Assembly: GCA_965220695.1 (NCBI GenBank)
Contig: OZ244838.1
Location: 2,530,377 to 2,594,376 of the forward strand
Reading direction: 5' to 3'
Origin: Vicinamibacterales bacterium
GTDB lineage: Bacteria > Acidobacteriota > Vicinamibacteria > Vicinamibacterales > UBA8438
Length of the DNA stretch: 64,000 nt
The stretch's first letter is position 1. Each line of letters begins with the position of its first letter. Positions 1,937 through 35,561 of the stretch are shown in pieces. Below the pieces are notes generated by a model. It saw nothing but the letters and a program-made list of their open reading frames with translations. It was not told the origin of the DNA and did no database searches. Made by a program: the position numbers and the translations under genes.

Positions 1937-2038
1937 GCAGTCATGCCGCAGTCTGGGCAAGAGCAGCTACTTGTTCCCGGGTGCCGTGAAATGAGCAGTT
2001 ATGCCGCCGTCTGGTGCAAGAGCAACTACTCGTTCCTG
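1926..2038 (+). repeat. Tandem 57/58-bp duplication of the imuB-stop/dnaE2-start junction
   Basis: ccgtggaATGAgcagtcatgccgcagtctgg-gcaagagcagctacttgttcccgg (1926-1980) versus ccgtgaaATGAgcagttatgccgccgtctggtgcaagagcaactactcgttcctgg (1983-2038). About 85% identity, with a 1-nt deletion in the first copy. Confidence 0.85.
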
Positions 2039-5000: not shown

Positions 5001-5089
5001 ACGGCGTGGTGCACCTGGTGGCGGACACGCTGTGGCCGCCCGAGCTCGACCAACGGCCAGACGCGGTGCACAGCCGCGACTTTCACTGA
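1991..5089 (+). CDS. dnaE2: Error-prone DNA polymerase DnaE2 (Pol III alpha-type, PHP plus polymerase core)
   Basis: Track ORF 1943..5089. Homology-style start [26 protein letters not shown] at ATG 1991 (the typical DnaE2 N-terminus). Motifs [22 protein letters not shown]. Follows imuB. Confidence 0.9.
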
Positions 5090-9400: not shown

Positions 9401-9587
9401 GCGAGGTCATCGCCGCCTCCATCGCCGGCGGCGCCGCGCCCGGCCACGTCAGGTCGACGTCGACGGCCGGATAGCTCAGCTCCGGCATCAACTCGATCGA
9501 CACCTGCGTCGCGTCGAAGACAGCGAGCACGCCAAGGGCGAGAGCGGCCATTCCGACGGTGACCGGATGCGCCGCCGCCCACCGCAT
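6492..9587 (-). CDS. RND (AcrB/MdtC-type) inner-membrane efflux permease
   Basis: Track ORF 6492..9974. The probable start is ATG 9587 (MRWAAAHPVTVGMAAL...), 8 nt after the stop of the upstream RND gene. 12-TM/large-loop architecture. AcrB-like motifs (VIVENV, LLVGIVDNNGVLL). Confidence 0.85.
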   Translation of the reverse strand: MRWAAAHPVTVGMAALALGVLAVFDATQVSIELMPELSYPAVDVDLTWPGAAPPAMEAAMTSRVEAAASRLAGVRSVASRTERGRAVVRVFFDPEARLDVGRLALRDALRVFERDWPVGARAPRLLQYVPPELRQEAFLTVFLTGALSPEALRRTVRDEFQSRLVALEGIARVTMLGGRRELLAVELDPDALNQLALAPATVRAFVLDAVRQRHAGYVDRSERRLEVVVEASAQTLESLRALRLPGFDGRVRLDDVASVRRQSAPPDREYRFQGQPRVALVLEREPGANVLELSDRVRALLSTRIAALPGDLRHFITRDGADRIRAELGSLGRRLVWILGFVAAALLVVFRNLRTPLLLLLTAGATAALTLSFMTRAGLSINILTLAAMALGLGMLVDNAVVIVENVATRLSRGEPTRRAVVDGAAEVARPLFFAQLTTVGVFLPFIYFEGRLGVTFAPLALVLTALLAASVVVSWFIVPAAGVRWLPANVAAASGARRPSRLRRPVALVVRYWWVTPLVAAALCAHGGWRFWQDVPRGRFLEPPVTERLQVEVQTPSGTDPARTDQVIRTFEDALLSDRAAEDVGDVWVEVDGQTARLEVTFSDEQLARGLPFVARRRLVEQAAAFARVSVNVTGYGDPFQAGPLLAFPASHNSRLQVRGYTLDSAVELAGAIGRQARLSPRVVEYRVTTSTRGNTTMGSLDLSQRELALSLRPAGIRRLGADPQDVLDFVSLASARATPRAYGFEGDDRLPEVTEFRIAGADRQDVDSLLRLTAPVRYGAPARIEQFADVREQLVPDGIDRRDQEYRVTVSWDYQGPPQLASEYEQQVFEAIRPPPGFSVHRLDEYLVTDDESRMLTLALAAAVVVIFMVLAVLYESLWHPVIVLATIPLALIGVCYTYLWTGASFTSSGYIGVILLVGIVDNNGVLLMDRISQLRRAGSSAFAAATQGTIDRVRPVLLTSATTALGLLPMLWDQPQTGQPDLWSDLARSAVGGLVTSSILVLAVVPSLYMAGEQVKRLVRRSGRVAPA

Positions 9588-9595
9588 GAGCGGCG

Positions 9596-12500
9596 TCAGC
9601 ACGTCACGGCCTCGCGGCGCGGCGCCGGCGCCAGCACGTCGTACAGCACCGGGACGACACAGATCGACAGGACCGTGCCGGCGAGGAGCCCGCCAATCAG
9701 CGTCAGCGCCAGCGCCCGCTGCAGCTCGTGGGCCGGCGCGGTGGTCAGCGCCAGCGGCGCGACCGCCAGCACGGTCGTGACCGTCGTCATCAGGATCGGC
9801 CGCACGCGCAGCAGTGCCGCCGCGATGATGGCCTGTCGCGCGCCGCCCGGTTCGGCGTCGCGGTGTTTCAGGCGGATGAAGTCGACCATGACGACGGCGT
9901 CGTCCACCCCGATCCCGATCAGCACCGCGGCCGCCATGATCGTGAAGACGTTCACGGTCAGGCCGAACACCCACCAGGTGGCGACGACGCCGGCCAGCGT
10001 CAGCGGCACGGCGAGGAGCACGACGAACGCCAGGCGGACCGACTCGAACTCTGCCGACAGGCAGATCGCAACGAGCACCAGTGCGATAATCAGGACCCAG
10101 CGAAACGAGGCGAGCGACTCGGCGGCGTCGGCGCTCCGTGTCCGCACCTGTACGCGGACGTCGGGCGGCAGCGAAAGCTGCGCCAGCGCCTCGCCCAGAC
10201 GGCGCTCCAGGCCGGCCCGGGCCAGACCGTCCGGCGCCAGGCTCACCGTCAGCACCCGGCGGTGGTCGCGCCGAGTGATTTCCGCCGCCGCCGCGTCCGC
10301 CACGGGCGTACCGAGCAGGCCGAGCGGCACCTGCGGCCGGCGCGCCGCGGCCCCGCCCTCGCGGCCCTCGACCAGGCCGCGCCGCGGCACGATCGGGATT
10401 CGGTCGAGCGACGACGCGGGGCTCGCGCCGTGTTCCAGCGAATGCCGCAAGACCACCTGCAACGGCGGGTCCCCGATGCGGAGCTGGGCGACCGTGTCCC
10501 CACGCGTGACGTAGCCGATTTGTTCCGCGGTCTCAGCCGCCGAGAGGCCGAACGCGCCCAGAGCGTCCTGGTCGAGGTTCAGCCGGACTTGCGACACGGG
10601 GTCCGGCGGCGCGGCGACGACCCGGCCGAGATCGCCGCGGTCGTCGACGAGCGCGGCGAACGCATCCGCAAGCCGCCGCAACTCCGCCAGGTCGGCGCCC
10701 GAAAAGGCGACATCGATCGGGCCGGCCAGCAAGCCGAGGACATCGTGCAGCGGCGTCCGGGTGGGCTCGACCCGCACGTCGAAACCCGGTAGCCGCCGCT
10801 CGACCGCGCGCCCGAGATCGCCCACTCCCGCCGAGTCCGCCACATGGAACTGCGCCCGCACCGCGGCGCGGCGCATCCATCCGTCGCCAGTCAGGTCATT
10901 GACCGCCTGCAGGCCCGCCGTGGTCAGCACCTGCTCGGCGTCCGTCGCCGCCTCGATGGTCGCTTCGAGCGTGGCGGCGGCCAGCTCCAGATGCTCGATC
11001 GCCATGCCGTGGCGCGGGTCCGCCGCCACGCTGACGTCGCCGGTGTCGACCGGTGGCGCCACCTCGCGCGGCGTCCGAAGCACCCCGACGGCGGCCGCGA
11101 CCACTAGCGCCGCGGCGGCCGAGAGCGTCAGCCACCGGCGCCGCAGCAGCACGCCGAGCAGCCGTCCGAGAACCGTGGTCCACGGCTCCTTGGGCGCCCG
11201 CACCGGCCCCCGTCCCGCCAGGAGCGCCGACAGCGCCGGGACGAGGGTCAACGACACGACCCACGCCACCACGACCGCCACGCTCACCGTGACCGCCTGG
11301 TCGCGGAAGAGCGCGCCGGCGAAGCCGCCGACCGCGACCACCGGCAGGAAGACGACCAGCGTGGTGACGGTCACGCTCGTGATCGGCGCCAACACCTGCG
11401 ACGTCCCGGCCGTCGCGGCGGCGGCCGGCGCGAAGCCTTGTTCGCGATGCCGCTGGATGTTCTCGACGACGATGATCGCCGTGTTGACCAGCAGGCCGAC
11501 GCCAACTGCCAACCCGCCCAGGGAAATGACGTTGATCGAGATGTCGAGCCAGTCCATCGCCGCCAGGGCGCCGAGCACCGCCACCGGAACGACGATGCCG
11601 ATCACGACCGACTGCCGCCAGTCGCCCAGGAAGAAGAAGAGCACGCCGAAAGCGAGCGCGCCGCCCAGGACAACGGAGGTCAACGCCCCGCGCAACGCGT
11701 CACGGATGAAGCCGGCCTGCGCGTAGGCGACGTCGAGCCCGATATCCGGGTGCTGCGCACGGAACTCGTCGAGCAGGCCGGTGACCGCGTCGGTCAGCGC
11801 CAGGGCGTTGCCGGAGGCGTCCTTGTAGAGGCGGATCCCGACGACCGGCCGGCCCGCGAAGCGCAGCACCGAATCCGGCTCGCTCGGCGCCATGCCGACG
11901 CGGGCGACGTCGGCGAGCAGCACGCGGGGGTCTGCGCCTGGCTCGGAGACGACGACCGTCGCGAAGTCCGACACCGACTCGACGAGGGCAGGCACGCGCA
12001 GGCTGTAGCGATACGGTCCCTTTCGGAGCGTGCCGCTCTCCGGGACCGTCACCGCCCGGCGCAGCGCCTCCGCGATCTCCGCCGGCGCGACGTCCAGCAG
12101 GCGCGCCCGGGCGGGGTCGATCTCCACCAGTACCCGCTCGTCCCGGGCGCCGGCCAACTCGGCGCTGGCAACGCCCGGAATCTGCTCCAGCCGCGGCCGG
12201 AGAAGCTCGCGAATCGCCTTGCTGAGGGCGATCAGGCGCCACGCCTCCTGCGCGCCGGCCGCCGGCGCCAGCGACACGCCGTACCCGGCCCAATCCAGGT
12301 CGCCGCTCGAGCCGCCGTTACGCGGATCGCTGGTTGACGCCGCCAACACCAGGAACGGACGGTTTCCCGGATCCCACCGTCGCACCGTGGGGGGCGCCGC
12401 CGCCTCCGGCAAACCGTAGCGCACCTCGTCCAGCCGTTCCCGGACGTTGAGAATGGCGATGTCGACGTCTGTCATCCAGGGGAAGGTCAGCGTGATCACG

Positions 12501-12775
12501 GCGATCCCGTCGCGTGACATCGAGGCGACATCCTGCACGCCGGGGACGCCGCCGAGCGCCTGCTCGATCGGAATCGTCACCAGCTCCTCAATCTCGGCCG
12601 CGGGCGCGTCCTCCATCCGCACCTGCACCGAAACCTGCGGCAACTCAAGCGAGGGCAGAAGGTCGACCGGGATCCGCAGGCAGGCGACGACCCCGAACAG
12701 GACCACCGCCAGGGCGCCCATGCTCGCGCCGATCGGCCGCGCGACAAAGGTGCGAATCATCGCGTTCCGCTCCAA
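9596..12775 (-). CDS. RND (AcrB/MdtB-type) inner-membrane efflux permease
   Basis: 1059-aa ORF. N-terminus MIRTFVARPIGASMGALAVVLFG. AcrB-like motifs (AIIVVENI, GIGVDDAVVMVD). Tandem with a second RND permease, as in MdtBC-type heteromeric pumps. Confidence 0.85.
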   Translation of the reverse strand: MERNAMIRTFVARPIGASMGALAVVLFGVVACLRIPVDLLPSLELPQVSVQVRMEDAPAAEIEELVTIPIEQALGGVPGVQDVASMSRDGIAVITLTFPWMTDVDIAILNVRERLDEVRYGLPEAAAPPTVRRWDPGNRPFLVLAASTSDPRNGGSSGDLDWAGYGVSLAPAAGAQEAWRLIALSKAIRELLRPRLEQIPGVASAELAGARDERVLVEIDPARARLLDVAPAEIAEALRRAVTVPESGTLRKGPYRYSLRVPALVESVSDFATVVVSEPGADPRVLLADVARVGMAPSEPDSVLRFAGRPVVGIRLYKDASGNALALTDAVTGLLDEFRAQHPDIGLDVAYAQAGFIRDALRGALTSVVLGGALAFGVLFFFLGDWRQSVVIGIVVPVAVLGALAAMDWLDISINVISLGGLAVGVGLLVNTAIIVVENIQRHREQGFAPAAAATAGTSQVLAPITSVTVTTLVVFLPVVAVGGFAGALFRDQAVTVSVAVVVAWVVSLTLVPALSALLAGRGPVRAPKEPWTTVLGRLLGVLLRRRWLTLSAAAALVVAAAVGVLRTPREVAPPVDTGDVSVAADPRHGMAIEHLELAAATLEATIEAATDAEQVLTTAGLQAVNDLTGDGWMRRAAVRAQFHVADSAGVGDLGRAVERRLPGFDVRVEPTRTPLHDVLGLLAGPIDVAFSGADLAELRRLADAFAALVDDRGDLGRVVAAPPDPVSQVRLNLDQDALGAFGLSAAETAEQIGYVTRGDTVAQLRIGDPPLQVVLRHSLEHGASPASSLDRIPIVPRRGLVEGREGGAAARRPQVPLGLLGTPVADAAAAEITRRDHRRVLTVSLAPDGLARAGLERRLGEALAQLSLPPDVRVQVRTRSADAAESLASFRWVLIIALVLVAICLSAEFESVRLAFVVLLAVPLTLAGVVATWWVFGLTVNVFTIMAAAVLIGIGVDDAVVMVDFIRLKHRDAEPGGARQAIIAAALLRVRPILMTTVTTVLAVAPLALTTAPAHELQRALALTLIGGLLAGTVLSICVVPVLYDVLAPAPRREAVTC

Positions 12776-13841: not shown

Positions 13842-13920
13842 ACTGTCGGACAACGTGGACATCACAACAGGGCGCACCGATGGGTTTGCAGGGTGCGCCG
13901 CGCGTGACGGGAGTGGGGCG

Positions 13921-15171
13921 ATGCGAACGACACGGAGCCGGTGCGGCCGGGCAACCGGTCGCAGAGCGCGCTCTTCGCGCGGATCCTTCGTGATCGGTTC
14001 CCACCGGCAGTGCGTCCGTCTGGGGCTGCTTGGCGCGGCACTGGTAACGGCCTGCGCCGGGCCGACGCAGCCGCATGCGATCGATGCGCAAGGCCGCCCG
14101 GCGGTCATTGATGAGAGGATTACGATTACGTGGCCGGTGGGTGTGCCCTCGGGAGTGATCGCTAACATTGAGATTTGCGGCGATCGCGCGTATCTGCGTG
14201 TGGCTCGGCAGCAAGTGATCCGCGTGGTTGACCTCGCTGCAGGACGGGTGGTGGGGCAGATCGGCCGCGGCGGTGAAGGGCCCGGCGAGTTGCGGTCCCC
14301 GACAGGTCTCATGGTGGATTGCGCCCGCGGGAGGCTCTATGTCGGCGAGGGTCCCTCCGGCATCACCGTCTATCGCCTTTCGGACGGGGAGTACGTGCGA
14401 AAATATTTCCAGCCGGATACCTTCGGGTTGACCGTCGGGTCTCCGATGTTTCTGTCGCCGGACGGCGCACGCCTGTTTGCGGGAGGATTGTGGGCGGCAT
14501 CAATGGAGCGATGGCGGGGCTTCAACCGCCGCCCGCAGGATGAAGTGCTGGCAGGGATGCAATTGGGCTTGGCCGTGTCCCTGGCGGACGGCGCCGCGAC
14601 ACCGTTGTTGTCGGGCCCGATCGAAACCACCTGTATCGGTTTGTTCGAGAACTGCCGTACCGTGACGATAGCGCGTGTGGACGGCGCGTCGGACCCGTGG
14701 GTCGTTGCGCAGGCCACCGCGACCTCGCTCGGCGTGTACGACCACGACGGTGCGCTGGTGCGCACCATCGACGTGCGGTCGCCGTCGTTTCTGCGCGACG
14801 GGTCCCGCGCGCAGCGCATGAGCCGCGACGGCGGCGGGCTGGTGGCCATGGCGGATTGGGGCCTGACCAACAGCACCATCCGGATGGTCTACGCATTCGG
14901 GAATGTTATCGCCACCGTGCACCGACATCATGCAGTGGAGTACAACCAGCTGGGAACGATGCAGTACAACGTCTTCATGAACCTGCACTCGCACGATGGG
15001 GATGCGCTTGTCAGTGACATCCGCCTGCCGGGTCTTCCGCTGGGACGCGACGACACGCACCTGCTGTTCATCGACTGGGGGCAGGCCGGACGCAGGATGG
15101 CCTTCGACGCGGTGGACCTCGTGCGCGTGCCGGTCCTGGCCGGCGAGGCCGGCTTCGTGCGGGGCGAATAG
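13921..15171 (+). CDS. NHL-repeat-like beta-propeller lipoprotein, paralog 1 of 5
   Basis: Track ORF 13855..15171. ATG 13921 (MRTTRSRCGR...) is conserved in all five paralogs. Lipobox-like LGAALVTAC. NHL-like motif GQIGRGGEGPGELRSP. Conserved Cys pairs (ICGDRAY, DCARGRL, TCIG..ENCRTV). Confidence 0.7.
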   Translation: MRTTRSRCGRATGRRARSSRGSFVIGSHRQCVRLGLLGAALVTACAGPTQPHAIDAQGRPAVIDERITITWPVGVPSGVIANIEICGDRAYLRVARQQVIRVVDLAAGRVVGQIGRGGEGPGELRSPTGLMVDCARGRLYVGEGPSGITVYRLSDGEYVRKYFQPDTFGLTVGSPMFLSPDGARLFAGGLWAASMERWRGFNRRPQDEVLAGMQLGLAVSLADGAATPLLSGPIETTCIGLFENCRTVTIARVDGASDPWVVAQATATSLGVYDHDGALVRTIDVRSPSFLRDGSRAQRMSRDGGGLVAMADWGLTNSTIRMVYAFGNVIATVHRHHAVEYNQLGTMQYNVFMNLHSHDGDALVSDIRLPGLPLGRDDTHLLFIDWGQAGRRMAFDAVDLVRVPVLAGEAGFVRGE

Positions 15172-15172
15172 C

Positions 15173-15736
15173 ATGGAGGACTCGTTGGATGCACCCGGAT
15201 CCACGACCGGCACGTCGACGGCGGCAACTGCCGACGGCGAGGCGGCGAGGTCGACGGTCGCCGGCCGTACGGTCGGGCGGCCCCGTTCCAGGTTGCGTGT
15301 GGCGGCCAGACTGCTGTTGGGGGCGCTGATCCTCGTGTCCGTCGGCGTGCTCATCAGCGACTACCGGCGGCAAGTCACCTGGACACGGGATCTGGCGGCG
15401 GCGTATGCGTTCGTCGCGGACCATCCCGAGGTGTCACGGTATCTCCCCTGCTTTTGCGGTTGCGGTCAACAGGCGGGACATTCGTCCGTGGACAGTTGCT
15501 TCGTGAGTCGACGGGACGATGCAGGGAACGTCGTCTCCGAGAACGCACACGCCAGAACCTGACCGGTGTGCGTCGACATCGCGCGTGTCGCGATGCGGAT
15601 GCACCAAGGCGGCGACACGGTTTCCGAGATTCAAGGCGCCATCGATGGAGCATACGGGGCGACGAATGTCCTCAGAACCGACACCCCGGCATGGCCAGAC
15701 CAGCGACCGGCCGCGGAGGCCGAGACGCCGCAGTAG
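15173..15736 (+). CDS. Membrane-anchored PCYCGC-family protein with in-frame TGA at 15560-15562 (candidate selenocysteine, U-P-V-C), copy 1
   Basis: ATG lies 1 nt after the NHL-1 stop (TAGcATG). TM helix RLRVAARLLLGALILVSVGVLI. AYAFVADHPEVSRYLPCFCGCGQQAGHSSVDSCF matches the PCYCGC signature. The track ORF stops at TGA 15560, but the frame stays open 57 more codons (PVCVDIARVAMRMHQGGDTVSEIQGAIDGAYG...) to TAG 15734-15736. A hairpin follows the TGA. Confidence 0.6.
15568..15604 (+). promoter_or_regulatory. SECIS-like hairpin 6 nt downstream of TGA 15560
   Basis: GUGCGUC/GGAUGCAC outer stem (7 bp, one G-U), a 2x2 internal loop, CAUCGCG/CGCGAUG inner stem (7 bp) and apical loop CGUGU at 15584-15588, i.e. 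22-26 nt after the UGA. Identical in all three copies. Confidence 0.5.
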
Positions 15737-15860
15737 TGGCAGGTGGACCTGGCACCGGAGGCTATATGGCTCGACACGTTCCAACCGCATGGTCCTCAGC
15801 GGCCCATAGCAGTCCGTGGTGAAACCCGCGTTGCACCGAGATCGGCGATGCGCGCGCTGA

Positions 15861-16147
15861 GCAAGACCTGTAGGGGCAACCCTTGTGGTTGCCCTGTTGT
15901 ACGCAAGACCTGTAGGGGCAACCCTTGTGGTTGCCCTGTTGTACGCAAGACCTGTAGGGGCAACCCTTGTGGTTGCCCTGTTGTACGCAAGACCTGTAGG
16001 CGCAACCCTTGTAGTTGCCCTGTTGTACGCAAGACCTGTAGGGGCAACCCTTGTGGTTGCCCTGTTGTACGCAAGACCTGTAGGCGCAACCCTTGTAGTT
16101 GCCCTGTTGTACGCAAGACCTGTAGGGGCAACCCTTGTGGTTGCCCT
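15861..16147 (+). repeat. Tandem array of 7 x 42-bp REP-like hairpin units
   Basis: Unit gcaagacctgtaGGGGCAACCcttgtGGTTGCCCtgttgtac (8-bp stem, 5-nt loop). Copies start at 15861, 15903, 15945, 15987, 16029, 16071 and 16113. Copies 4 and 6 carry the same two substitutions (taggCgcaacccttgtAgttgccc). Confidence 0.9.
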
Positions 16148-16197
16148 CTTCGTCAGCAGGAACAACGACGCGCAGCAGGATGCAGCGTGAAACAGCA

Positions 16198-16257
16198 GAA
16201 TTCAGCGGGGAAAGGCTGAATTCAGCGGGAGAGCTCAGAATTCAGCGGGGATCGAAC
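16198..16257 (+). repeat. Tandem array of 3 x 20-bp GAATTCAGCGGG units
   Basis: GAATTCAGCGGG at 16198, 16218 and 16238, plus a degenerate fourth unit. The core (C)TGAATTCAG is palindromic and AT-rich relative to the genome. Confidence 0.85.
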
Positions 16258-16429
16258 GCAGCGGGGCTTTTGCCACGGACTGCTACTAACCGCCTGATCA
16301 GGTCACCGTCTCCGAGCTCCCGCACTGCAGATGACGCGAACGAGGATCAGCGTTCCCCTCCTCTACTCCATCTCATCCTCGTTCAGAGCCGTTGCCGGCC
16401 CCAACCGATTCAGACCGCCGTCGGGCGCC

Positions 16430-16620
16430 TCACAAACTGTATCCGTCCGGCGAGTACGCGACGGCCTCCGGGAAGTAGATGTTCTCGATGATGGATCGAC
16501 CCATGTAGACGGGCGAGGTCGCGGTCCTGTTCCGAGCCAGGGTCCGCATGAACGCGTTCTCGTCCTTCGGCGCCGGGATGCCCACCTCAAGGCAGATGCG
16601 GACTATGCCGGGGACGACGC
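16430..16620 (-). pseudogene. Dead 3'-terminal fragment of the alpha/beta hydrolase gene found intact at 26805..27962
   Basis: Track ORF 16430..16639 ends ...GIVRICLEVGIPAPKDENAFMRTLARNRTATSPVYMGRSIIENIYFPEAVAYSPDGYSL. The intact gene's C-terminus reads ...GIVRTCLEVGIPAPEDENAFMRTLARNRTATSPVYMGRSIIENIYFPGAVAYSPDGYSF. No N-terminal part is present. Confidence 0.85.
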
Positions 16621-16657
16621 GCGCCGGCAGAGGGTACACCGATGGGTCCGTAAGGAG

Positions 16658-16702
16658 TCTGCGCCGTCAGTAGGTTGTAAGCTGTATTCTCTGCGGCGCA
16701 GA
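16658..16702 (+). promoter_or_regulatory. Conserved leader element with 9-bp inverted repeat upstream of NHL paralogs 2-5
   Basis: TCTGCGCCG-(27 nt AT-rich: tcagtaggttgtaagctgtattctctg)-CGGCGCAGA. Near-identical blocks lie ahead of the starts at 19462, 20983 and 22503. Function unknown. Confidence 0.3.
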
Positions 16703-16738
16703 TTCCACGAGCGCGCCGCGCGAGAGGGACGCGGAACG

Positions 16739-17998
16739 ATGCGAACGACACGGCGTCGATGTGGCCGGGCGTGGCGGGTGATCGGCTACCGTGGGCACTC
16801 TCAGGGCAGGTCGTCCGTTGTCGGTTCGCACCGGCATTTTGTTTACCTGGGGCTGCTTGGCGCGGCACTGGTGACGGCCTGCGGCGGACCGACGCAGCCG
16901 TATGCGGTCGATGCGCAAGGGCGTCCGGCGGTCATTGATGACAGGATGACGATAACGTGGCCGGTGGGCGTGCCCTCGGGGCTGATTGCTAGCATCGAGA
17001 CCTGCGGCGGTCGCGCGTATCTGCACGTTGCTGGGCAGCAAGTGTTCCGCGTGGTTGACCTCGCCGCCGGGCGGGTTGTGGGGCAGATTGGCCGCGGCGG
17101 CGAAGGGCCCGGCGAGTTGCGGCAGCCGATAAGTCTCCTGGCGGATTGCGCACGCGGGAGGCTCTTCGTCGGCGAGGCTCCGGCCGGCATCACGGTCTAT
17201 CGCCTTCCGGACGGGGAGTACCTGCGAGAATTCTCCCTGCCGTGGCGTACGTTCGGGTTGTCTACCTTTACTCCGATGTTTCTGTCGCCGGACGGCGCAC
17301 GCCTGTTTGCGGGCGGGTTGTGGGCATCAAGAGATCGATGGCAGGGCTTTAGCCGGCGCCCGCAGGATGAAGTGCTGGCGGGGATGCAATCGGGTCTGGC
17401 CTTGTCCCTGGTGGACGGCGCGGCGGCGCCCTTGTTCTCGAGCCCGATCGAACCCGCCTGCATCGGATCGCAAAACGACTGTCGCACCGTGGCGATAGCG
17501 CGTGTGGAGGGGGCGCCGGACCCGTGGATCGTCGCGCAGGCCACCGCGACCTCGCTCGGCGTGTACGACGACGACGGTGCGCTGGTGCGCACCATCGACG
17601 TGCGGTCGCCGTTGTTCCTGCGCGACGGGTTCCGCGCGCGGCGCATGAGCCGCGATGGCGGGGGCTTTGCGGCCATGGTGGATTGGGGCCTGACCAACAG
17701 CACCGTCGGGAACGTCTACGCATTCGGGGACGTGATCGCCACCGTGCACCGACATCATGCAGTGGAGTACAACCAGCCGGGGCCCCTGCAGTACAACGTC
17801 CTCATGAACCTGCACTCGCACGATGGGGATGGGCTGGTCAGCGACATCCGCCTGCCGGGTCTTCCGCTGGGACGCGACGACACGCACCTGCTCTTCATCG
17901 ACTGGGGGCAGGCTGGACGCAGGATGGCCTTCGACGCGGTGGACCTCGTGCGGGTGCCGGTCGTGGCCGGCGAGGCCGGCTTCGTGCGGGGCGAATAG
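16739..17998 (+). CDS. NHL-repeat-like beta-propeller lipoprotein, paralog 2
   Basis: Track ORF 16331..17998. Conserved ATG 16739 (MRTTRRRCGRAW...), LGAALVTAC lipobox, GQIGRGGEGPGELRQP. High identity to paralog 1. Confidence 0.7.
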   Translation: MRTTRRRCGRAWRVIGYRGHSQGRSSVVGSHRHFVYLGLLGAALVTACGGPTQPYAVDAQGRPAVIDDRMTITWPVGVPSGLIASIETCGGRAYLHVAGQQVFRVVDLAAGRVVGQIGRGGEGPGELRQPISLLADCARGRLFVGEAPAGITVYRLPDGEYLREFSLPWRTFGLSTFTPMFLSPDGARLFAGGLWASRDRWQGFSRRPQDEVLAGMQSGLALSLVDGAAAPLFSSPIEPACIGSQNDCRTVAIARVEGAPDPWIVAQATATSLGVYDDDGALVRTIDVRSPLFLRDGFRARRMSRDGGGFAAMVDWGLTNSTVGNVYAFGDVIATVHRHHAVEYNQPGPLQYNVLMNLHSHDGDGLVSDIRLPGLPLGRDDTHLLFIDWGQAGRRMAFDAVDLVRVPVVAGEAGFVRGE

Positions 17999-17999
17999 C

Positions 18000-18542
18000 A
18001 TGGAGGACTCTGTGGACGCACCCGGATCCACGACCGACACGTCGACGGCGGCGAGTTCGACGGTCGCCGGCCGAACGGTCGGGCGGCCCCGTTCCAGGAT
18101 GCGTGTGGCGGCCAGACTGCTGTTGGGGGCGCTGATCCTCGTGTCCGCCGGCGTGCTCATCAGCGACTACCGGCGGCAAGTCACCTGGACGCGAGATCTT
18201 GCGGCGGCGTATGCGTTCGTCGCGGACCATCCCGAGGTGTCACGGTATCTCCCCTGCTTTTGCGGTTGCGGTCAACAGGCGGGACATTCGTCCGTGGACA
18301 GTTGCTTCGTGAGTCGACGGGACGAGGCAGGGAACGTCGTCTCCGAGAACGCACACGCCAGAACCTGACCGGTGTGCGTCGACATCGCGCGTGTCGCGAT
18401 GCGGATGCACCAACGCGGCGACACGGTTTCCGAGATTCAAGGCGCCATCGATGGAGCATACGGGGCGACGAATGTCCTCAGAACCGACACCCCGGCATGG
18501 CCAGACCAGCGACCGGCCGCGGAGGCCGAGACGCCGCAGTAG
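18000..18542 (+). CDS. PCYCGC-family candidate selenoprotein, copy 2 (in-frame TGA 18366-18368)
   Basis: ATG lies 1 nt after the NHL-2 stop. Same architecture as copy 1, with a 7-aa deletion in the N-terminal tail. The frame continues from the TGA to TAG 18540-18542. Confidence 0.6.
18374..18410 (+). promoter_or_regulatory. SECIS-like hairpin after TGA 18366
   Basis: Sequence identical to the hairpin at 15568-15604. Confidence 0.5.
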
Positions 18543-18664
18543 CGGCGGGTGGACCTGGCGCCGGAGGCTATGGTTCGACCCGCTCCAACCGCATGGTCCT
18601 CAGCGGCCCATAGCAGTCCGTGGTGAAACCCGCGTTGCACCGAGATCGGCGATGCGCGCGCTGA

Positions 18665-18825
18665 GCAAGACCTGTAGGGGCAACCCTTGTGGTTGCCCTG
18701 TTGTACGCAAGACCTGTAGGGGCAACCCTTGTGGTTGCCCTGTTGTACGCAAGACCTGTAGGCGCAACCCTTGTAGTTGCCCTGTTGTACGCAAGACCTG
18801 TAGGGGCAACCCTTGTGGTTGCCCT
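18665..18825 (+). repeat. Tandem array of 4 x 42-bp REP-like hairpin units
   Basis: Units start at 18665, 18707, 18749 (variant type) and 18791. Same consensus as the array at 15861. Confidence 0.9.
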
Positions 18826-18875
18826 CTTCGTCAGCAGGAACAACGACGCGCAGCAGGATGCAGCGTGAAACAGCA

Positions 18876-18975
18876 GAATTCAGCGGGGAATGGCTGAATT
18901 CAGCGGGTGAGCTCAGAATTCAGCGGGGAAAGGCTGAATTCAGCGGGAGAGCTCAGAATTCAGCGGGGATCGAAT
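18876..18975 (+). repeat. Tandem array of 5 x 20-bp GAATTCAGCGGG units
   Basis: GAATTC at 18876, 18896, 18916, 18936 and 18956, plus a degenerate terminal unit. Confidence 0.85.
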
Positions 18976-19158
18976 GCAGCGGGGCTTTTGCCACGGACTG
19001 CTACTAACCGCCAGATCCGGTCACCGGCTCCGAGCTCCCGCACTGCAGATGACTCCAACGAGGATCAGCGTTCCACTCCTCTACTCCATCTCATCCTCCT
19101 TCAGAGCCCTTGCCGGCCCCAACCGATTCGGACCGCCGCCGCCGCACCGTCGGGCGCC

Positions 19159-19340
19159 TCAGAAACTGTATCCGTCCGGCGAGTACGCGATGGCCCCCGG
19201 GAAGTAGATGTTCTCGATGATGGAGCGACCCATGTAGACGGGGGACGTCGCGGTCCTGTTTCGAGCCACGGTCGGCATGAACGCGTTCTCGTCCTCCGCC
19301 GCCGGAATGCCCAACTCGAGGCAGGTGCGGACTATGCCGG
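19159..19340 (-). pseudogene. Second dead 3'-terminal fragment of the alpha/beta hydrolase gene
   Basis: Track ORF 19159..19368 ends ...GIVRTCLELGIPAAEDENAFMPTVARNRTATSPVYMGRSIIENIYFPGAIAYSPDGYSF. Confidence 0.85.
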
Positions 19341-19461
19341 GGACAACGCGGGACGGCACAGGGTGCACCGATGGGTCCGCAAGGAGTCTGCGCCGTCAGT
19401 ATGTTGTAAGCTGTATTTTCTGCGCCGCAGATTGCGTCGCGCGAGAGGGGCGCGGAACGAA

Positions 19462-20736
19462 ATGCGAACGACACGGAGCCGATGTGGCCGGGCGTGGCGG
19501 GTGATCCGCTACCGTGGGCACTTTCGGCGCAGGTCGTCCGTTGTTGGTTCCCACCGGCATTTCGTTTGCCTGGGACTGCTTGGCGCGGCGCTGATAGCGG
19601 CCTGCGGCGAGCCGAGGCAGTATGCGGTCGATGCTCACGGGCGTCCGGCGGTCATTGACGATCGCGTGACGATAACGTGGCCGGTGGACGTGCCCTCGGG
19701 ACTGATCCTTCTTGCCGCGACCTGCGGTGATCGCATGTATCTGCGCGCGACAGGCCAGCAACGCGCGTCTCGCCAGCAAGTGATCCGCGTGGTTGACCTC
19801 GCCGCCGGACGGGTGGTGGGGCAGATCGGCCGAGGCGGCGAAGGGCCCGGCGAGTTGGAACAGCCGACAACTCTCCTGGCGGATTGCGCACGCGGGAGGC
19901 TCTTCGTCGGCGACCCTCCGGCCGGCATCAAGGTATATCGCCTTCCGGACGGGAAGTATCTGCGAGATTTCTCCCTGCCGTGGCGTACGTTCGGGTTGTC
20001 CACTTTGACTCCGATGTTTCTGTCGCCGGATGGCGCACACCTGTTTGCGGGCGGGTTGTGGGCATCAACAGATCAATGGATGGGCTTCAACGCGCGTCCG
20101 CAGGATGAAATGCTGGCGGCGATGCAATTGGGCTTGGCCTTGTCCCTGGCGGACGGCACGGCGGCGCCGTTGTTCTCTGGTCCGGTCGAAACTGCCTGCA
20201 TTGGATTGCCCGAGAACTGCCGCACGGTGACGATAGCGCGTGTGGACGGGGCGCCGGACCCGTGGATCGTCGCGCAGGCCACCGCGACCTCGCTCGGCGT
20301 GTACGACGACGACGGGGCGCTGGTGCGCACCATCGACGTGCGGTCGCCATCGTTCCTGCGGGACGGATCCCGGGCGCGGCGCATGAGACGCGATGGTGGG
20401 GGCTATGCGGCCATGGTGGATTGGGGCCTGACCAACAGCACCATCCGGAACGTCTACGCATTCGGGGACGTGATCGCGACCGTGCATCGGTATCACGCCA
20501 CGGAGTACAACCAGCAGGGGCCCCTGCAGTACAACGTCTTCATGAACCTGCACTCGTACGATGGGGATGGGCTGGTCAGCGACATCCGCCTGCCGGGTCA
20601 TCCGGTGGGCCGCGACGACACGCACCTGCTCTTCATCGACTGGGGGCAGGCCGGACGCAGGATGGCCTTCGACGCGGTGGACCTCGTGCGCGTGCCGGTC
20701 CTGGCCGGCGAGGCCGGCTTCGTGCGGGGCGAATAG
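19462..20736 (+). CDS. NHL-repeat-like beta-propeller lipoprotein, paralog 3
   Basis: Track ORF 18907..20736. Conserved ATG 19462 (MRTTRSRCGRAW...). Carries a short internal duplication (LRATGQQRASRQQVIRVVD) that is shared with paralog 4. Confidence 0.7.
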   Translation: MRTTRSRCGRAWRVIRYRGHFRRRSSVVGSHRHFVCLGLLGAALIAACGEPRQYAVDAHGRPAVIDDRVTITWPVDVPSGLILLAATCGDRMYLRATGQQRASRQQVIRVVDLAAGRVVGQIGRGGEGPGELEQPTTLLADCARGRLFVGDPPAGIKVYRLPDGKYLRDFSLPWRTFGLSTLTPMFLSPDGAHLFAGGLWASTDQWMGFNARPQDEMLAAMQLGLALSLADGTAAPLFSGPVETACIGLPENCRTVTIARVDGAPDPWIVAQATATSLGVYDDDGALVRTIDVRSPSFLRDGSRARRMRRDGGGYAAMVDWGLTNSTIRNVYAFGDVIATVHRYHATEYNQQGPLQYNVFMNLHSYDGDGLVSDIRLPGHPVGRDDTHLLFIDWGQAGRRMAFDAVDLVRVPVLAGEAGFVRGE

Positions 20737-20737
20737 C

Positions 20738-20865
20738 GGGGATTGCACGCGGAGAGTTCGGCTGCCGGGTCCCACCGCTCGCCGCCGTGCGATCTGACGA
20801 TGAGCCTCGGCACGCGGGCGAAGTCAAGCGACGCCTTCGTACGCTGGCCGGCCGCAATACACCGG
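20738..20865 (-). pseudogene. 128-bp internal fragment of the 12778..13311 gene, copy A
   Basis: Aligns to 13011-13138 (ggggatYgcacgcggaga...gtcccaccgctcgccgccgtgcgatctgac...acaccgg). Starts 2 nt after the NHL-3 stop. Confidence 0.8.
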
Positions 20866-20982
20866 ATCGGCACAGGGTGCACCGATCGGTCGGCAAGGAG
20901 TCGGCGCCGTCAGTATGTTGTAAGTTGATTTCTTGCGACGCAGATTCGCCGCTTGCGCCGCGCGAGAGGGGCGCGGAACGAA

Positions 20983-22260
20983 ATGCGAACGACACGGAGC
21001 CGATGTGGCCGGGCGTGGCGGGTGATCGGCTACCGTAGGCACTCTCAGCGCAGGTGTTCCGTGATCGGTTCCCACCGGCAGTTCGCCTGTCTGGGGCTGC
21101 TTGGCGCGGCGCTGGTGACGGCCTGCGCCGGACCGACGCAGCCGTATGCGGTCGATGCGCAAGGGCGCCCGGCGGTCATCGACGATCGGGTGACGATAAC
21201 GTGGCCGGCGGGCGTGCCCTCGGGACTGATCGTTCTTGCCGCGACCTGCGGTGATCGCGTGTATCTGCGCGCGACTGGCCAACAACGCGCGTCTCGCCAG
21301 CAAGTGATCCGCGTGGTTGACCTCGCCGCCGGACGGGTGGTGGGGCAGATCGGCCGCGGCGGCGAAGGGCCCGGCGAGTTGCAGCAGCCGACAACTCTCC
21401 TGGCGGATTGCGCACGCGGGAGGCTCTTCGTCGGCGACCCTCCGGCCGGCATCAAGGTCTATCGCCTTCCGGACGGGGAGTACCTGCGAGATTTCTCCCT
21501 GCCGTGGCGTACGTTCGATTTGTCCACCTTGACTCCGATGTTTCTGTCGCCGGATGGCGCACGCCTGTTTGCGGGCGGGATGTGGGCATCAACAGAACAA
21601 TGGCTGGGCTTCAACGCGCGCCCGCAGGATAAATTGCTGGCGGGGATGCAATTGGGCTTGGCCTTGTCCCTGGCGGACGGCGCGGCGGCACCGTTGTTCT
21701 CTGGTCCGGTCGAAACCGCCTGCATTGGATTGCCCGAGAACTGCCGCAACGTGACGATAGCGCGTGTGGACGGGGCGCCGGACCCGTGGATCGTCGCGCA
21801 GGCCACCGCGACCTCGCTCGGCGTGTACGACGACGACGGCGCGCTGGTGCGCACCATCGACGTGCGGTCGCCGTCGTTCCTGCGCGACGGGTCTCGCGCG
21901 CGGCGCATGAGCCGCGATGGCGGGGGCTATTCGGCCATGGTGGATTGGGGCCTGACCAACAGCACCATCCAGGACGTCTACGCATTCGGGGACGTGATCG
22001 CCACCGTGCATCATTATCACGCCACGGAGCGCAACCAGCAGGGGCCCCTGCAGTACAACGTCTTCATGAACCTGCACTCGCACGATGGGGATGGGCTGGT
22101 CAGCGACATCCGCCTGCCGGGTCATCCGGTGGGCCGCGACGACACGCACCTGCTCTTCGTCGACTGGGGGCAGGCCGGACGCAGGATGGCCTTCGACGCC
22201 GTGGACCTCGTGCGCGTGCCGGTCCTGGCCGGCGAGGCCGGCTTCGTGCGGGGCGAATAG
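20983..22260 (+). CDS. NHL-repeat-like beta-propeller lipoprotein, paralog 4
   Basis: Track ORF 20953..22260. Conserved ATG 20983. Same motifs as the other paralogs. Confidence 0.7.
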   Translation: MRTTRSRCGRAWRVIGYRRHSQRRCSVIGSHRQFACLGLLGAALVTACAGPTQPYAVDAQGRPAVIDDRVTITWPAGVPSGLIVLAATCGDRVYLRATGQQRASRQQVIRVVDLAAGRVVGQIGRGGEGPGELQQPTTLLADCARGRLFVGDPPAGIKVYRLPDGEYLRDFSLPWRTFDLSTLTPMFLSPDGARLFAGGMWASTEQWLGFNARPQDKLLAGMQLGLALSLADGAAAPLFSGPVETACIGLPENCRNVTIARVDGAPDPWIVAQATATSLGVYDDDGALVRTIDVRSPSFLRDGSRARRMSRDGGGYSAMVDWGLTNSTIQDVYAFGDVIATVHHYHATERNQQGPLQYNVFMNLHSHDGDGLVSDIRLPGHPVGRDDTHLLFVDWGQAGRRMAFDAVDLVRVPVLAGEAGFVRGE

Positions 22261-22261
22261 C

Positions 22262-22388
22262 GGGGATCGCACGCGGAAAGCTCTGCTGCCGGGTCCCACC
22301 GCTCGCCGCCGTGCGATCTGACGATGAGCCTCAAGGCGGGCGAAGTCAAGCGACTCCTTCGTACGCTGGCCGGCCGCAATACACCGGG
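22262..22388 (-). pseudogene. 128-bp internal fragment of the 12778..13311 gene, copy B
   Basis: Aligns to 13011-13138. Starts 2 nt after the NHL-4 stop. Confidence 0.8.
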
Positions 22389-22502
22389 CCGGCACAGGGT
22401 GCACCGCTGGGTCCGCAAGAAGTCTGCGCCCACAGATGTTGTAGGCTGTATTTTCTGCGGCGCAGACTCCCCGAGTGCGCCGCGCGAGAGGGGCGCGGAA
22501 CG

Positions 22503-23771
22503 ATGCGAACGACACGGCGCCGATGTGGCCGGGCGTGGCGGGTGACCGGGCACCGTGTGCGCTCTCAGGGCAGGTCGTCCGTTGTCGGTTCGTACCGGCA
22601 TTTTGTTTACCTGGGGCTGCTTGGCGCGGCGCTGATAACGGCCTGCGCCGAGCCGAGGCAGTATGCGGTCGATGCGCACGGGCGTCCGGCGGTCATCGAC
22701 GAACGGGTGACGATAACGTGGCCGGTGGGCGTGCCCTCGGGACTGATCAACGGTGTCGAGACCTGCGGCGATCGCGCGTATCTGCACGTGTCTCGGCAGC
22801 AAGCGATCGGCATCCGCGTGGTTGACCTCGTCGCCGGACGGGTGGTGGGGCAGATCGGCCGAGGCGGCGAAGGGCCCGGCGAGTTGCGGCAACCGATAAG
22901 TCTCCTGGCGGATTGCGCACGCGGGAGGCTCTTCGTCGGCGAGGCTCCGGCCGGCATCACGGTCTATCGCCTTTCGGACGGGGAGTACCTGCGAGAATAC
23001 CCCCTGCCGCGGCGTCCCTTCACCTTCGGGTTTTCCACCCTTACTCCGATGTTTCTGTCGCCGGACGGCGCACGCCTGTTTGCGGGCGGGTTGTGGGCAT
23101 CAAGAGAACGATGGCAGGACTTCAGTTGGCGCCCGCAGGATGAAGTGCTGGCGGGGATGCAATCGGGTCTGGCCTTGTCGCTGGCGGACGGCGCGGCGGC
23201 GCCCTTGTTCTCGAGCCCGATCGAACCCGCCTGCATCGGATCGCACAACGACTGCCGCATCGTGACGATAGCGCGTGTGGACAGGGCGCCGGACCCGTGG
23301 ATCGTCGCGCAGGCCACTGCGACCTCGCTCGGCGTGTACGACGACGACGGCGCGCTGGTGCGCACCATCGACGTGCGGTCGCCGTCGTTCCTGCGCGACG
23401 GGTCCCGCGCGCGGCGCATGAGCCGCGATGGCGGGGGCTTTGCGGCCATGGCGGATTGGGGCCTGACCAACAGCACCATCCGGAGGGTCTACGCATTCGG
23501 GGACGTGATCGCCACCGTGCACCGACATCATGCAGTGGAGTACAACCAGCCGGAATACCTCCAGTACAACGTCTTCATGAACCTGCACTCGCACGATGGG
23601 GATGGGCTGGTCAGCGACATCCGCCTGCCGGGTCTTCCGCTGGGACGCGACGACACGCACCTGCTGTTCATCGACTGGGGGCAGGCCGGACGCAGGAACG
23701 CCTTTGATGAAGTGGACCTCGTGCGCGTGCCGGTCCTGGCCGGCGAGGCCGGCTTCGTGCGGGGCGAATAG
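22503..23771 (+). CDS. NHL-repeat-like beta-propeller lipoprotein, paralog 5
   Basis: In frame within track ORF 21786..23771. Conserved ATG 22503 (MRTTRRRCGRAW...). The upstream part of the track ORF is an out-of-context read-through across paralog 4. Confidence 0.7.
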   Translation: MRTTRRRCGRAWRVTGHRVRSQGRSSVVGSYRHFVYLGLLGAALITACAEPRQYAVDAHGRPAVIDERVTITWPVGVPSGLINGVETCGDRAYLHVSRQQAIGIRVVDLVAGRVVGQIGRGGEGPGELRQPISLLADCARGRLFVGEAPAGITVYRLSDGEYLREYPLPRRPFTFGFSTLTPMFLSPDGARLFAGGLWASRERWQDFSWRPQDEVLAGMQSGLALSLADGAAAPLFSSPIEPACIGSHNDCRIVTIARVDRAPDPWIVAQATATSLGVYDDDGALVRTIDVRSPSFLRDGSRARRMSRDGGGFAAMADWGLTNSTIRRVYAFGDVIATVHRHHAVEYNQPEYLQYNVFMNLHSHDGDGLVSDIRLPGLPLGRDDTHLLFIDWGQAGRRNAFDEVDLVRVPVLAGEAGFVRGE

Positions 23772-23772
23772 C

Positions 23773-24336
23773 ATGGAGGACTCGTTGGACGCACCCGGAT
23801 CCACGACCGGCGCGGCGACGGCGGCAACTGCCGACGGCGAGGCGGCGAGGTCGACGGTCGCCGGCCGTTCGGTCGGGCGGCCCCGTTCCAGGTTGCGTGT
23901 GGCGGCCAGACTGCTGTTGGGGGCGCTGATCCTCGTGTCCGTCGGCGTGCTCATCAGCGACTACCGGCGGCAAGTCACCTGGACACGGGATCTGGCGGCG
24001 GCGTATGCGTTCGTCGCGGACCATCCCGAGGTGTCACGGTATCTCCCCTGCTTTTGCGGTTGCGGTCAACAGGCGGGACATTCGTCCGTGGACAGTTGCT
24101 TCGTGAGTCGACGGGATGAGGCAGGACACGTCGTCTCAGAGAACGCACACGCCAGAACCTGACCGGTGTGCGTCGACATCGCGCGTGTCGCGATGCGGAT
24201 GCACCAACGCGGCGACACGGTTTCCGAGATTCAAGGCGCCATCGATGGAGCATACGGGGCGACGAATGTCCTCAGAACCGACACCCCGGCATGGTCAGGC
24301 CAGCGACCAGCCGCGGAGGCCGAGACGCCGCAGTAG
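23773..24336 (+). CDS. PCYCGC-family candidate selenoprotein, copy 3 (in-frame TGA 24160-24162)
   Basis: ATG lies 1 nt after the NHL-5 stop. The frame continues from the TGA to TAG 24334-24336. A few substitutions relative to copy 1 occur on both sides of the TGA. Confidence 0.6.
24168..24204 (+). promoter_or_regulatory. SECIS-like hairpin after TGA 24160
   Basis: Sequence identical to the hairpin at 15568-15604. Confidence 0.5.
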
Positions 24337-26790: not shown

Positions 26791-26804
26791 GACCGTCGGG
26801 CGCC

Positions 26805-27962
26805 TCAGAAACTGTATCCGTCCGGCGAGTACGCGACGGCCCCCGGGAAGTAGATGTTCTCGATGATGGAGCGACCCATGTAAACGGGGGACGTCGCGGT
26901 CCTGTTCCGAGCCAGAGTCCGCATGAACGCGTTCTCGTCCTCCGGCGCCGGGATGCCCACCTCGAGGCAGGTGCGGACGATCCCGGCCATCTCCTCGGGC
27001 TCGTCGCGTTGCAGGTAGTGGTTGGCCGTGGGCAGCAGCCAGTAGCTGCTCTCCGCCGCCCGCTTGTCGAGATAGTTGTACCAGATGTGATTGCCGATGC
27101 GGGGCGGGTTCACCGTGTCCAGAAGCCCCCAGATGAGCGCCGTCGGGATCGGGCTCTCGCGCAGGGTGTCCAGCCAGCGGTACTCGTTCGCTGTTCGCTC
27201 AAGCAGGTACTTGCCGACATACAGCCGTGCGCCGATCCCGTCGTTGAACGCCTGGATGTCAGCGTAGGCGACCTGCCGCGGCGTGCCTTCCGTCACCCGC
27301 GGCCGGGCCTGCTGCGCCCGGATCAGCTCGGGACCTCGCACGGCGTCCTGAATCGCGTACTGGCCCGGGCTGAGGTTGGCCAGGGGCAGAAAGAGCCCGC
27401 CGTTGGATATGAAGTGATAGGTGATCTCGTAGGCCCTCTCCTCACGCGCCAGGTAGTTGCCCAGAAAGGCGAAGCCGACGCTGCCGCCGCGATCGTGGGT
27501 CAGGAGATGGAACCGGGACAGTCCCACGACCTCCCGGACGAAGTGATCGACGAGCTTCGCGTCGTCCTCCAGCATGTACGAATAGCCGTCTTGCGGCTTG
27601 TCCGAGAAGCCGAAACCGGGAAAGTCGAGGACAGCGACGAAGTAATCCTCTTCCAGGAAGGGAATCATCTCCCGGAAGTCGAAACTCGACGTGGGATAGC
27701 CGTGCAGAATCAGCAGCGCCGGGTTGGCGCGGTTCCCGAAGGTCCGGTAGAAGACATTGACTCGACGGCCCTCGTTGTTGGGCGTCGTCGAGGTCCACTC
27801 GAAGTACTCTCCGGAGCGGTACCACTCTTCGGCGAGCGGGGAATAGAATGTGAAATCGGTCTGGGGAGCGCGCGTCTGCGAGCCGATCACGGTCGCACTC
27901 GCGTAGGGGCTCACGAGCGCCGGACCCGCGGCCGCGAGCTTCAGGAATGAACGTCTATCCAT
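26805..27962 (-). CDS. Tat-exported alpha/beta hydrolase
   Basis: 385 aa. Twin-arginine-like leader MDRRSFLKLAAAGPALV. LILHGYPTSSFDFREM and HDRGGSVG (nucleophile-elbow-like) motifs. Its 3' end is the source of the fragments at 16430 and 19159. Confidence 0.75.
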   Translation of the reverse strand: MDRRSFLKLAAAGPALVSPYASATVIGSQTRAPQTDFTFYSPLAEEWYRSGEYFEWTSTTPNNEGRRVNVFYRTFGNRANPALLILHGYPTSSFDFREMIPFLEEDYFVAVLDFPGFGFSDKPQDGYSYMLEDDAKLVDHFVREVVGLSRFHLLTHDRGGSVGFAFLGNYLAREERAYEITYHFISNGGLFLPLANLSPGQYAIQDAVRGPELIRAQQARPRVTEGTPRQVAYADIQAFNDGIGARLYVGKYLLERTANEYRWLDTLRESPIPTALIWGLLDTVNPPRIGNHIWYNYLDKRAAESSYWLLPTANHYLQRDEPEEMAGIVRTCLEVGIPAPEDENAFMRTLARNRTATSPVYMGRSIIENIYFPGAVAYSPDGYSF

Positions 27963-35437: not shown

Positions 35438-35541
35438 CTAGCAGCCCGTGGTGAAACCCCGCGTAGCACCGAGATCTGGTCGTAACAATGCTGCGCCCGC
35501 TAAGCAAGACCTGTAGGGGCAACCCTTGTGGTTGCCCTGTT
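35438..35541 (+). repeat. Solo copy of the left IR motif plus one REP-like hairpin unit
   Basis: cTAGCAGCCCGTGGTGAAACCCCGCGTAGCACCGAGATC (35438-35476), then gcaagacctgtaGGGGCAACCcttgtGGTTGCCCtgtt (35504-35541). Same sequences as at 15807/15861. Confidence 0.85.
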
Positions 35542-35561
35542 CGTCACCCGGGTCTCGGCGG

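Follow-up and report, generated by a model that had tools for sequence, protein, structure and literature searches.

An in-frame TGA probably read as selenocysteine in a predicted membrane-anchored PCYCGC protein whose gene is carried in three tandem copies

The TGA codon at position 18366 of the 64-kb stretch of DNA analysed here, which we call the window, most likely encodes selenocysteine (Sec) in a small, membrane-anchored, Cys-rich protein of the PCYCGC/CYCXC family; we put the probability of this reading at about 85%. That the PF13798/CYCXC family includes selenoproteins is already known, and the gene in the window is a further member. An earlier note on this DNA had proposed that the codon is decoded instead of terminating translation, and five kinds of evidence now support that proposal: the pairing of Cys and Sec in one alignment column, the presence of TGA at the same place in relatives, the ratio of nonsynonymous to synonymous change (dN/dS) beyond the codon, the fit of the adjoining hairpin to the bacterial SECIS (bSECIS) consensus, and a relative (L014) that has TGA in this column and scores above the cut-off of NCBI's curated "(seleno)protein" model. 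Sec insertion at residue 123, the membrane topology and the biochemical role are what we infer from sequence only.

The gene of interest is the second of three copies (Table 1), and its product has 180 residues plus a stop, with the Sec position at residue 123. A variable, Arg-rich N-terminal tail (residues 1-35) is followed by one hydrophobic, predicted transmembrane helix (residues ~36-55) and then by the PF13798 domain (residues 66-165), and the part encoded after the TGA holds the second Cys of the UxxC motif and the two C-terminal helices of the domain. Reading the sequence again upheld the details that had been reported for this gene. For example, the TAGcATG coupling to the upstream partner is present, with the partner's stop TAG at 17996-17998, a C at 17999 and the ATG at 18000-18002, and this GAATAGCATGGAGGA junction between partner and selenoprotein genes recurs at 15169-15175 and 23769-23775. 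The context of the TGA reads ...NAHART-TGA-PVCVDIA, and the frame beyond it stays open for 57 codons, up to the TAG at 18540-18542. Compared with copy 1, copy 2 has seven codons fewer in the N-terminal tail (181 versus 188 codons) and reads QRG where copy 1 has QGG. The count of copies needed amending: the gene had been described as a second copy, and it is indeed nearly identical to copy 1, but the total is three.

Table 1. Positions in the window of the three probable selenoprotein genes, the elements of copy 2 and the neighbouring genes
Feature	Position	Strand	Basis or remark
Probable selenoprotein gene, copy 1	15173..15736	+	TGA at 15560
Probable selenoprotein gene, copy 2	18000..18542	+	Translation, Pfam PF13798, alignments A1 + A4
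Probable selenoprotein gene, copy 3	23773..24336	+	TGA at 24160
In-frame TGA, proposed Sec codon, first position of U-P-V-C (UxxC)	18366..18368	+	
Post-TGA coding region, 57 codons	18369..18539	+	Homology to C-termini of Cys forms
Candidate bacterial SECIS hairpin	18374..18410	+	Fold, pair counts over 9 Sec forms
Partner beta-propeller lipoprotein gene ("NHL partner")	16739..17998 (start approximate)	+	Lipobox, AF2
Five tandem propeller paralogues	13855-23771		88-92% nucleotide identity
Two large RND permease genes, back to back	6492-12775	minus	Immediately upstream of cassette array

The first line of evidence comes from the protein domain. With the TGA read as Cys, the product scores 81 bits against PF13798 (PCYCGC), for which the gathering score is 25; the product truncated at the TGA scores 43.8 bits, which is also above that threshold. 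The read-through product covers positions 53-151 of the 153 in the profile and the truncated product positions 53-106, and because read-through extends the match to position 151, the domain is continuous across the TGA. In a 54-sequence alignment (A4), the invariant columns are P85, C86, C88, G89, C90, G95, H96, C102, H119, C123, C126 and G140. The motif that names the family appears in the window protein as PCFCGC, with F87 in place of Y, and its G95, H96, C102, H119, [U123] and C126 all fall on invariant columns. The TGA occupies the column of C123, the first Cys of the second CxxC motif of PF13798, which is an invariant Cys in the 53 homologues, and the Cys three residues further on is likewise invariant. 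The gene therefore would encode U-x-x-C where the family has C-x-x-C.

Is the TGA in this column peculiar to the window? Loci gathered partly from alignment-based scans of GTDB genomes and JGI metagenomes (labelled here with L numbers) show a TGA there at eight or more further loci, which have diverged and include four named lineages, and never a TAA or TAG; a scan of genome contigs with a single protein as the query gave no match. The TGA forms comprise a Vicinamibacterales metagenome-assembled genome (MAG; L001/L009), a Tara Pacific scaffold (L007), a Gemmatimonadales MAG (L011), a Sphaerobacterales MAG (L012), an uncultured deltaproteobacterial MAG (L014) and the loci L006, L019 and L020. 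In every one of these relatives the next 32-57 codons are open and can be aligned to Cys forms. Four homologues whose gene calls end at the C123 column (P0002, P0003, P0005 and P0008) have TGA in the DNA at that point and an open homologous frame beyond it. Over the domain, identity to the window protein ranges from 73% for L001, the closest, to 44% for L011. The scans returned Cys forms alongside the TGA forms (L010, L013, L018, L021 and L022), and Sec and Cys forms interleave: L006, a Sec form, is 71% identical to a Cys form and 60% identical to the window protein. The window protein, L001 and L007 make up a Sec-only group at 67-76% identity.

One further contig, L005, is the closest relative contig and was assembled from long reads at 1x coverage. 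Both of its gene copies (5589-5760 and 1610-1780) contain obvious indels of one base beyond the TGA, which are most simply taken as sequencing errors and not as frameshifts. L005 was kept out of arguments about reading frame and was used for the hairpin region only.

The second line of evidence is selection. Between L001 and L007, dN/dS is 0.21 after the TGA (0.14 when the hairpin codons are left out) and 0.20 before it; the pre-TGA value for the window against L019 was disregarded as an artefact of an unaligned indel. Judged by these substitution ratios, the coding region after the TGA is under purifying selection. The copies in the window speak to the same point in a more limited way. The earlier note considered their divergence too small to be decisive, and for the copy-to-copy comparison alone this stands, because only 1-4 of the 177 nt after the TGA differ among the three copies; the window does nevertheless hold a signal of its own, namely the place where the conserved block ends. 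Cassettes 1 and 2 diverge by 14.1% in the partner gene, 1.9% from the transmembrane helix to the TGA, 0.6% from the TGA to the TAG and 12.9% in the first 60 nt past the TAG. In other words, since divergence rises from 0.6% to 12.9% past the TAG, the block conserved between the cassettes stops at the TAG and not at the TGA.

A reassignment of TGA throughout the window was also considered, and it was rejected: TGA is an ordinary stop in 6 of the 11 Pfam-supported genes of the window, so the recoding is local and does not reflect a variant genetic code.

The third line of evidence is the hairpin that follows the TGA, which had been reported at 18374-18410 and which folding reproduces there: the centroid structure has two 7-bp stems and a 5-nt loop, with an energy of -22.8 kcal/mol. 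The lower stem pairs 18374-18380 with 18404-18410, the upper stem pairs 18383-18389 with 18395-18401, and the apical loop, CGUGU, occupies 18390-18394 and starts 21 nt past the TGA; element by element, the sequence is GTGCGTC GA CATCGCG CGTGT CGCGATG CG GATGCAC. The published bSECIS consensus describes an upper stem of 4-16 bp that carries a loop of 3-9 nt, a G at one or both of loop positions 1 and 2, with G or U as the usual next base, a distance of 16-37 nt from the UGA to the apical loop, and a minimum free energy no higher than -7.5 kcal/mol (PMC13188914). All four features are found here, with a 5-nt loop on a 7-bp upper stem, a G at loop position 2, a distance of 21 nt and an energy of -22.8 kcal/mol. 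The 45-nt string made up of the TGA and the hairpin is identical in all three copies. Across the nine Sec forms that share the same register, the upper stem is 100% paired, one of its pairs being swapped from G-C to C-G in L012 and L020 (a compensatory change), and the loop is CGKGN in nine of nine. The hairpins of L006 and L014 lie in other registers, with loops that begin 21 and 16 nt past the UGA.

How much weight can the hairpin bear? Its energy is not exceptional against dinucleotide shuffles (z = -1.28; 19 of 200 fold as well), nor is that of the 76-nt TGA context (z = -0.74), and it is unremarkable for a sequence of 67% G+C. On these z values we rejected hairpin stability as stand-alone evidence. 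The signal of the gene as a whole goes well past chance, with the PF13798 match carried through the TGA to profile position 151 and the TGA placed on an invariant Cys. Covariation is modest: 90.5% of the cells are paired, both partners have changed at two pairs, and the observed score is reached in 23 of 500 shuffles. A search of the whole window with Rfam at gathering thresholds returned no match, neither to a curated SECIS nor to any other RNA family. The conserved peptide C[IV]DIA..AM.MH may, through its codons, account for some of the complementarity, because the Cys forms L018 and L015 can form one or both stems as well, L015 being able to form the upper one. The feature specific to the Sec forms is an Arg codon that places Gs in the loop.

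The case of L018 deserves a separate description. This Cys form (codon TGC; JGI Ga0187777_10012659, positions 1666-1710) has the same two-stem hairpin, with a loop of CAUCA that contains no G. The hairpin could be either a fossil SECIS left behind after a change from Sec to Cys or a structure imposed by the codons of the conserved peptide.

Could the TGA at 18366 instead be a true stop? It might have arisen by one nonsense mutation that pre-dated amplification of the cassette, leaving a 122-residue fragment and a relic frame downstream. The three copies are 97-99% identical in this region, so a single shared mutation is possible; the public gene call P0001 (129 aa) does end at the TGA; the relative L024 holds what is left of a broken PCYCGC gene; and selA, selB, selC and selD were not seen in the 64-kb window. 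Such a history, however, would have to accommodate the same TGA in loci that are from 73% to below 45% identical over the domain and belong to four named lineages, with the downstream frame intact in all of them, as well as a dN/dS of about 0.2 after the codon and a conserved block of the cassettes that runs on to the TAG. Truncation would also cost the product two invariant Cys and a third of the domain. We regard a pseudogene as very unlikely.

Even if the UGA is translated, Sec need not be the residue that is inserted: a near-cognate tRNA (Trp or Cys) could read it at low efficiency, or the Sec machinery could have been lost, and residue 123 would then be Cys or Trp. The same lack of Sec machinery genes among those seen in the 64-kb window would suit this explanation, as would the interleaving of Sec and Cys forms, which indicates that position 123 tolerates Cys; ARAGORN, run on the window and on the 15 fetched loci, detected neither tRNA nor tRNA-Sec genes. 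We give it hardly any credence, as the use of TGA alone across phyla and the CGKGN loop specific to the Sec forms fit what is predicted of SelB and SECIS and not leaky suppression, and if Cys were the goal, a single change from TGA to TGC or TGT, of the kind present in some relatives (L018), would be strongly favoured. On the side of the host, some Acidobacteriota are documented users of Sec (Occallatibacter riparius), and the closest named relative of the window gene is a MAG from that phylum (Vicinamibacterales). A division into two genes, with a 122-residue membrane protein ending at the TGA and an independent 56-residue protein starting from the GTG at 18372, seems scarcely credible to us. 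Both pieces are contiguous parts of one Pfam domain, which over 1,800 homologues carry on one unbroken chain, and AF2 models the Cys homologue P0004 as one confident chain (mean pLDDT 91.5). The list of open reading frames does contain 18372-18542 with its GTG start, and in L001 and L006 the stretch beyond the TGA is called as a gene of 45-56 aa with a weak PF13798 match; but this GTG lies inside the UxxC motif, such that the product of the second gene would miss the first residue of the pair, and L014 reads AGG AUA UGC from the TGA to the conserved Cys codon, with none of the codons ATG, GTG and TTG in between.

Sec insertion thus remains our preferred reading, and we propose the following scheme for it. 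The UGA at 18366 would be read as Sec by SelB and tRNA-Sec, with the in-frame hairpin acting as the bacterial SECIS that directs insertion, and the product would carry U-P-V-C where most family members have C-x-x-C. The N-terminal signal-anchor helix would hold the Cys/His-rich domain, in which the invariant Cys, His and U residues are C86, C88, C90, H96, C102, H119, U123 and C126, at the outer face of the inner membrane. The domain probably faces the periplasm, given the hydrophobic N-terminal helix here and the lipoprotein prediction that the alignment consensus gives for most relatives. At that location, the selenol/thiol pair could serve as a redox-active centre or as a soft-metal ligand. 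The selenoprotein itself would be made by translational coupling with the beta-propeller lipoprotein.

What might such a protein do? We infer that it takes part in the handling of metals or thiols in the periplasm, because the gene is coupled to that of a beta-propeller lipoprotein and because RND efflux pumps adjoin it. For example, a CusA/CzcA-type RND pump is encoded directly upstream of the gene in L017 (1007 bits) and in L019, the gene in L001 is flanked by RND pumps or adaptors, and an ArsR-type regulator and a DsbD-like gene are found near L017. Of the two RND permeases in the window, neither reaches the cut-off of any NCBIfam subfamily, and conservation of the neighbourhood does not extend to more distant family members. 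Structural comparison yields no functional inference, since matches in the PDB are lacking by both fold and sequence: the AF2 model of P0004 gave no Foldseek match with E < 1, and a profile search of PDB sequences gave only insignificant matches (E > 0.2). With considerable doubt, we suggest a more specific picture in which the Sec-containing PCYCGC protein and the propeller lipoprotein form a periplasmic accessory of RND (CusA/CzcA-like) efflux, the selenol captures or reduces a soft metal or metalloid for export, and the tandem amplification (five propeller genes and three selenoprotein genes) is an adaptive dosage response in a symbiont-like acidobacterium. Linked to this picture is the idea that the hairpin of the conserved peptide, which Cys forms such as L018 already have, would as a latent SECIS have eased repeated switches from Cys to Sec in this family.

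The partner gene, whose stop codon lies 1 nt ahead of the selenoprotein ATG, encodes a protein with the lipobox LVTAC that scores 22.7 bits against Pfam DUF5128, just below the cut-off of 22.9. The best matches to its AF2 model are the 6-bladed propellers 3s9j (DUF4221) and the Brat NHL domain 1q7f; no PDB sequence match was obtained, and the fold matches are only those of a generic propeller. Its family is small, with 18 proteins at E < 1e-5 in a 5.8-billion-protein database. Of the five tandem paralogues, numbers 1, 2 and 5 are followed by TAGcATG and a PCYCGC gene, and numbers 3 and 4 end in TAG-CGGGGAT and run straight into the next cassette.

Several other features were observed in and around this array. 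In the relative L024 (ENA ERZ25067264 ctg834448_11x_l, ~5340-5524), which is otherwise syntenic with L001, a propeller-gene call ends in the broken PCYCGC remnant mentioned above, which reads ..LPCFCGCGQREGHTSLDS and then goes out of frame; either genuine decay or an indel from long-read sequencing could explain this. Tandem arrays of a 42-nt unit, GCAAGACCTGTAGGGGCAACCCTTGTGGTTGCCCTGTTGTAC, lie a short way downstream of PCYCGC copies 1 and 2, at 15861-16147 and 18665-18825 (6.8 and 3.8 copies), and related units lie 17 kb away at ~35439-35546. The unit carries the inverted repeat GGGCAACC/GGTTGCCC, and after each array come 20-nt repeats, GCAGAATTCAGCGGGGAAAGC, at 16195-16251 and 18873-18969. 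Upstream of the second cassette, a 194-nt stretch (16418-16611) recurs 10 kb off at 26793-26986 with 93.8% identity. At 398-5089, an ImuB-like (IMS family) gene is followed by one for DnaE2 (error-prone DNA polymerase III alpha), a pair that forms the usual SOS mutagenesis cassette.

Although the principles known about selenoproteins are unchanged by this find, it bears on annotation and on the family itself. Sec is normally a chemically active residue, and the second CxxC is therefore the likely reactive site of the PCYCGC domain, a domain that, with its reactive site marked in this way by Sec, has no solved fold. A poorly characterised selenoprotein family is extended to further phyla, and its interleaved Sec and Cys forms should be useful for the study of Sec/Cys exchange. 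In public gene calls the window gene and its relatives are broken at the TGA, with ~100-130 aa called as the N-terminal piece and 45-56 aa left over as an orphan ORF, because the clade lies outside the curated NCBIfam model NF041379; a sister model to NF041379 would fix the annotation in Vicinamibacterales-like, Gemmatimonadales and Sphaerobacterales genomes.

The closest known system is the one described by that model, which NCBIfam names "CYCXC family (seleno)protein" (OS_HP4), where OS_HP stands for Olavius symbiont hypothetical protein and OS_HP4 is number 4. A 2022 review lists OS_HP4 with UxxC, and a 2026 review places the family under PF13798, with UxxC and one Sec. The window protein scores 62.6 bits against NF041379, under the curated cut-off of 90, and we therefore place it outside the equivalog, in an unannotated sister clade; L001, L006, L011, L012, L019 and the Cys forms score 53-78 bits (65.5 for L001 and 77.5 for L019), and the control L014, with its TGA read as Cys, passes the cut-off at 113.5 bits. 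The window protein and OS_HP4 have in common the Pfam domain, the pattern PCxCGC...GH...CF...H...[U/C]xxC, the homologous column for Sec (as the TGA of L014 indicates) and one Sec per protein. They differ in that the window protein is longer, with CF and H set ~15 residues further apart and an RTDTP tail at the C-terminus, and has a predicted uncleaved signal-anchor helix where OS_HP4 has a short signal peptide. Additionally, the window gene occurs in three tandem copies, each coupled to a beta-propeller lipoprotein gene, and its closest named relative is acidobacterial and not deltaproteobacterial. The Cys-containing PCYCGC proteins, which are mostly predicted lipoproteins (Chloroflexota, Bacillota and others), share the domain and all invariant residues, and the nearest of them are 55-57% identical to the window protein over the domain; their codon at the position of the TGA is TGC or TGT, and most lack the Arg codon (CGU/CGG) that gives the apical loop its G. 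Finally, the UxxC selenoproteins of the MerT/MerP-like, CopZ-like and HMA-domain types described in the reviews, which bind or handle soft metals at the cell envelope, are likewise small and have Sec in place of the first Cys of a CxxC motif, but they are related to the window protein neither in sequence nor in fold, and the analogy is one of mechanism only.
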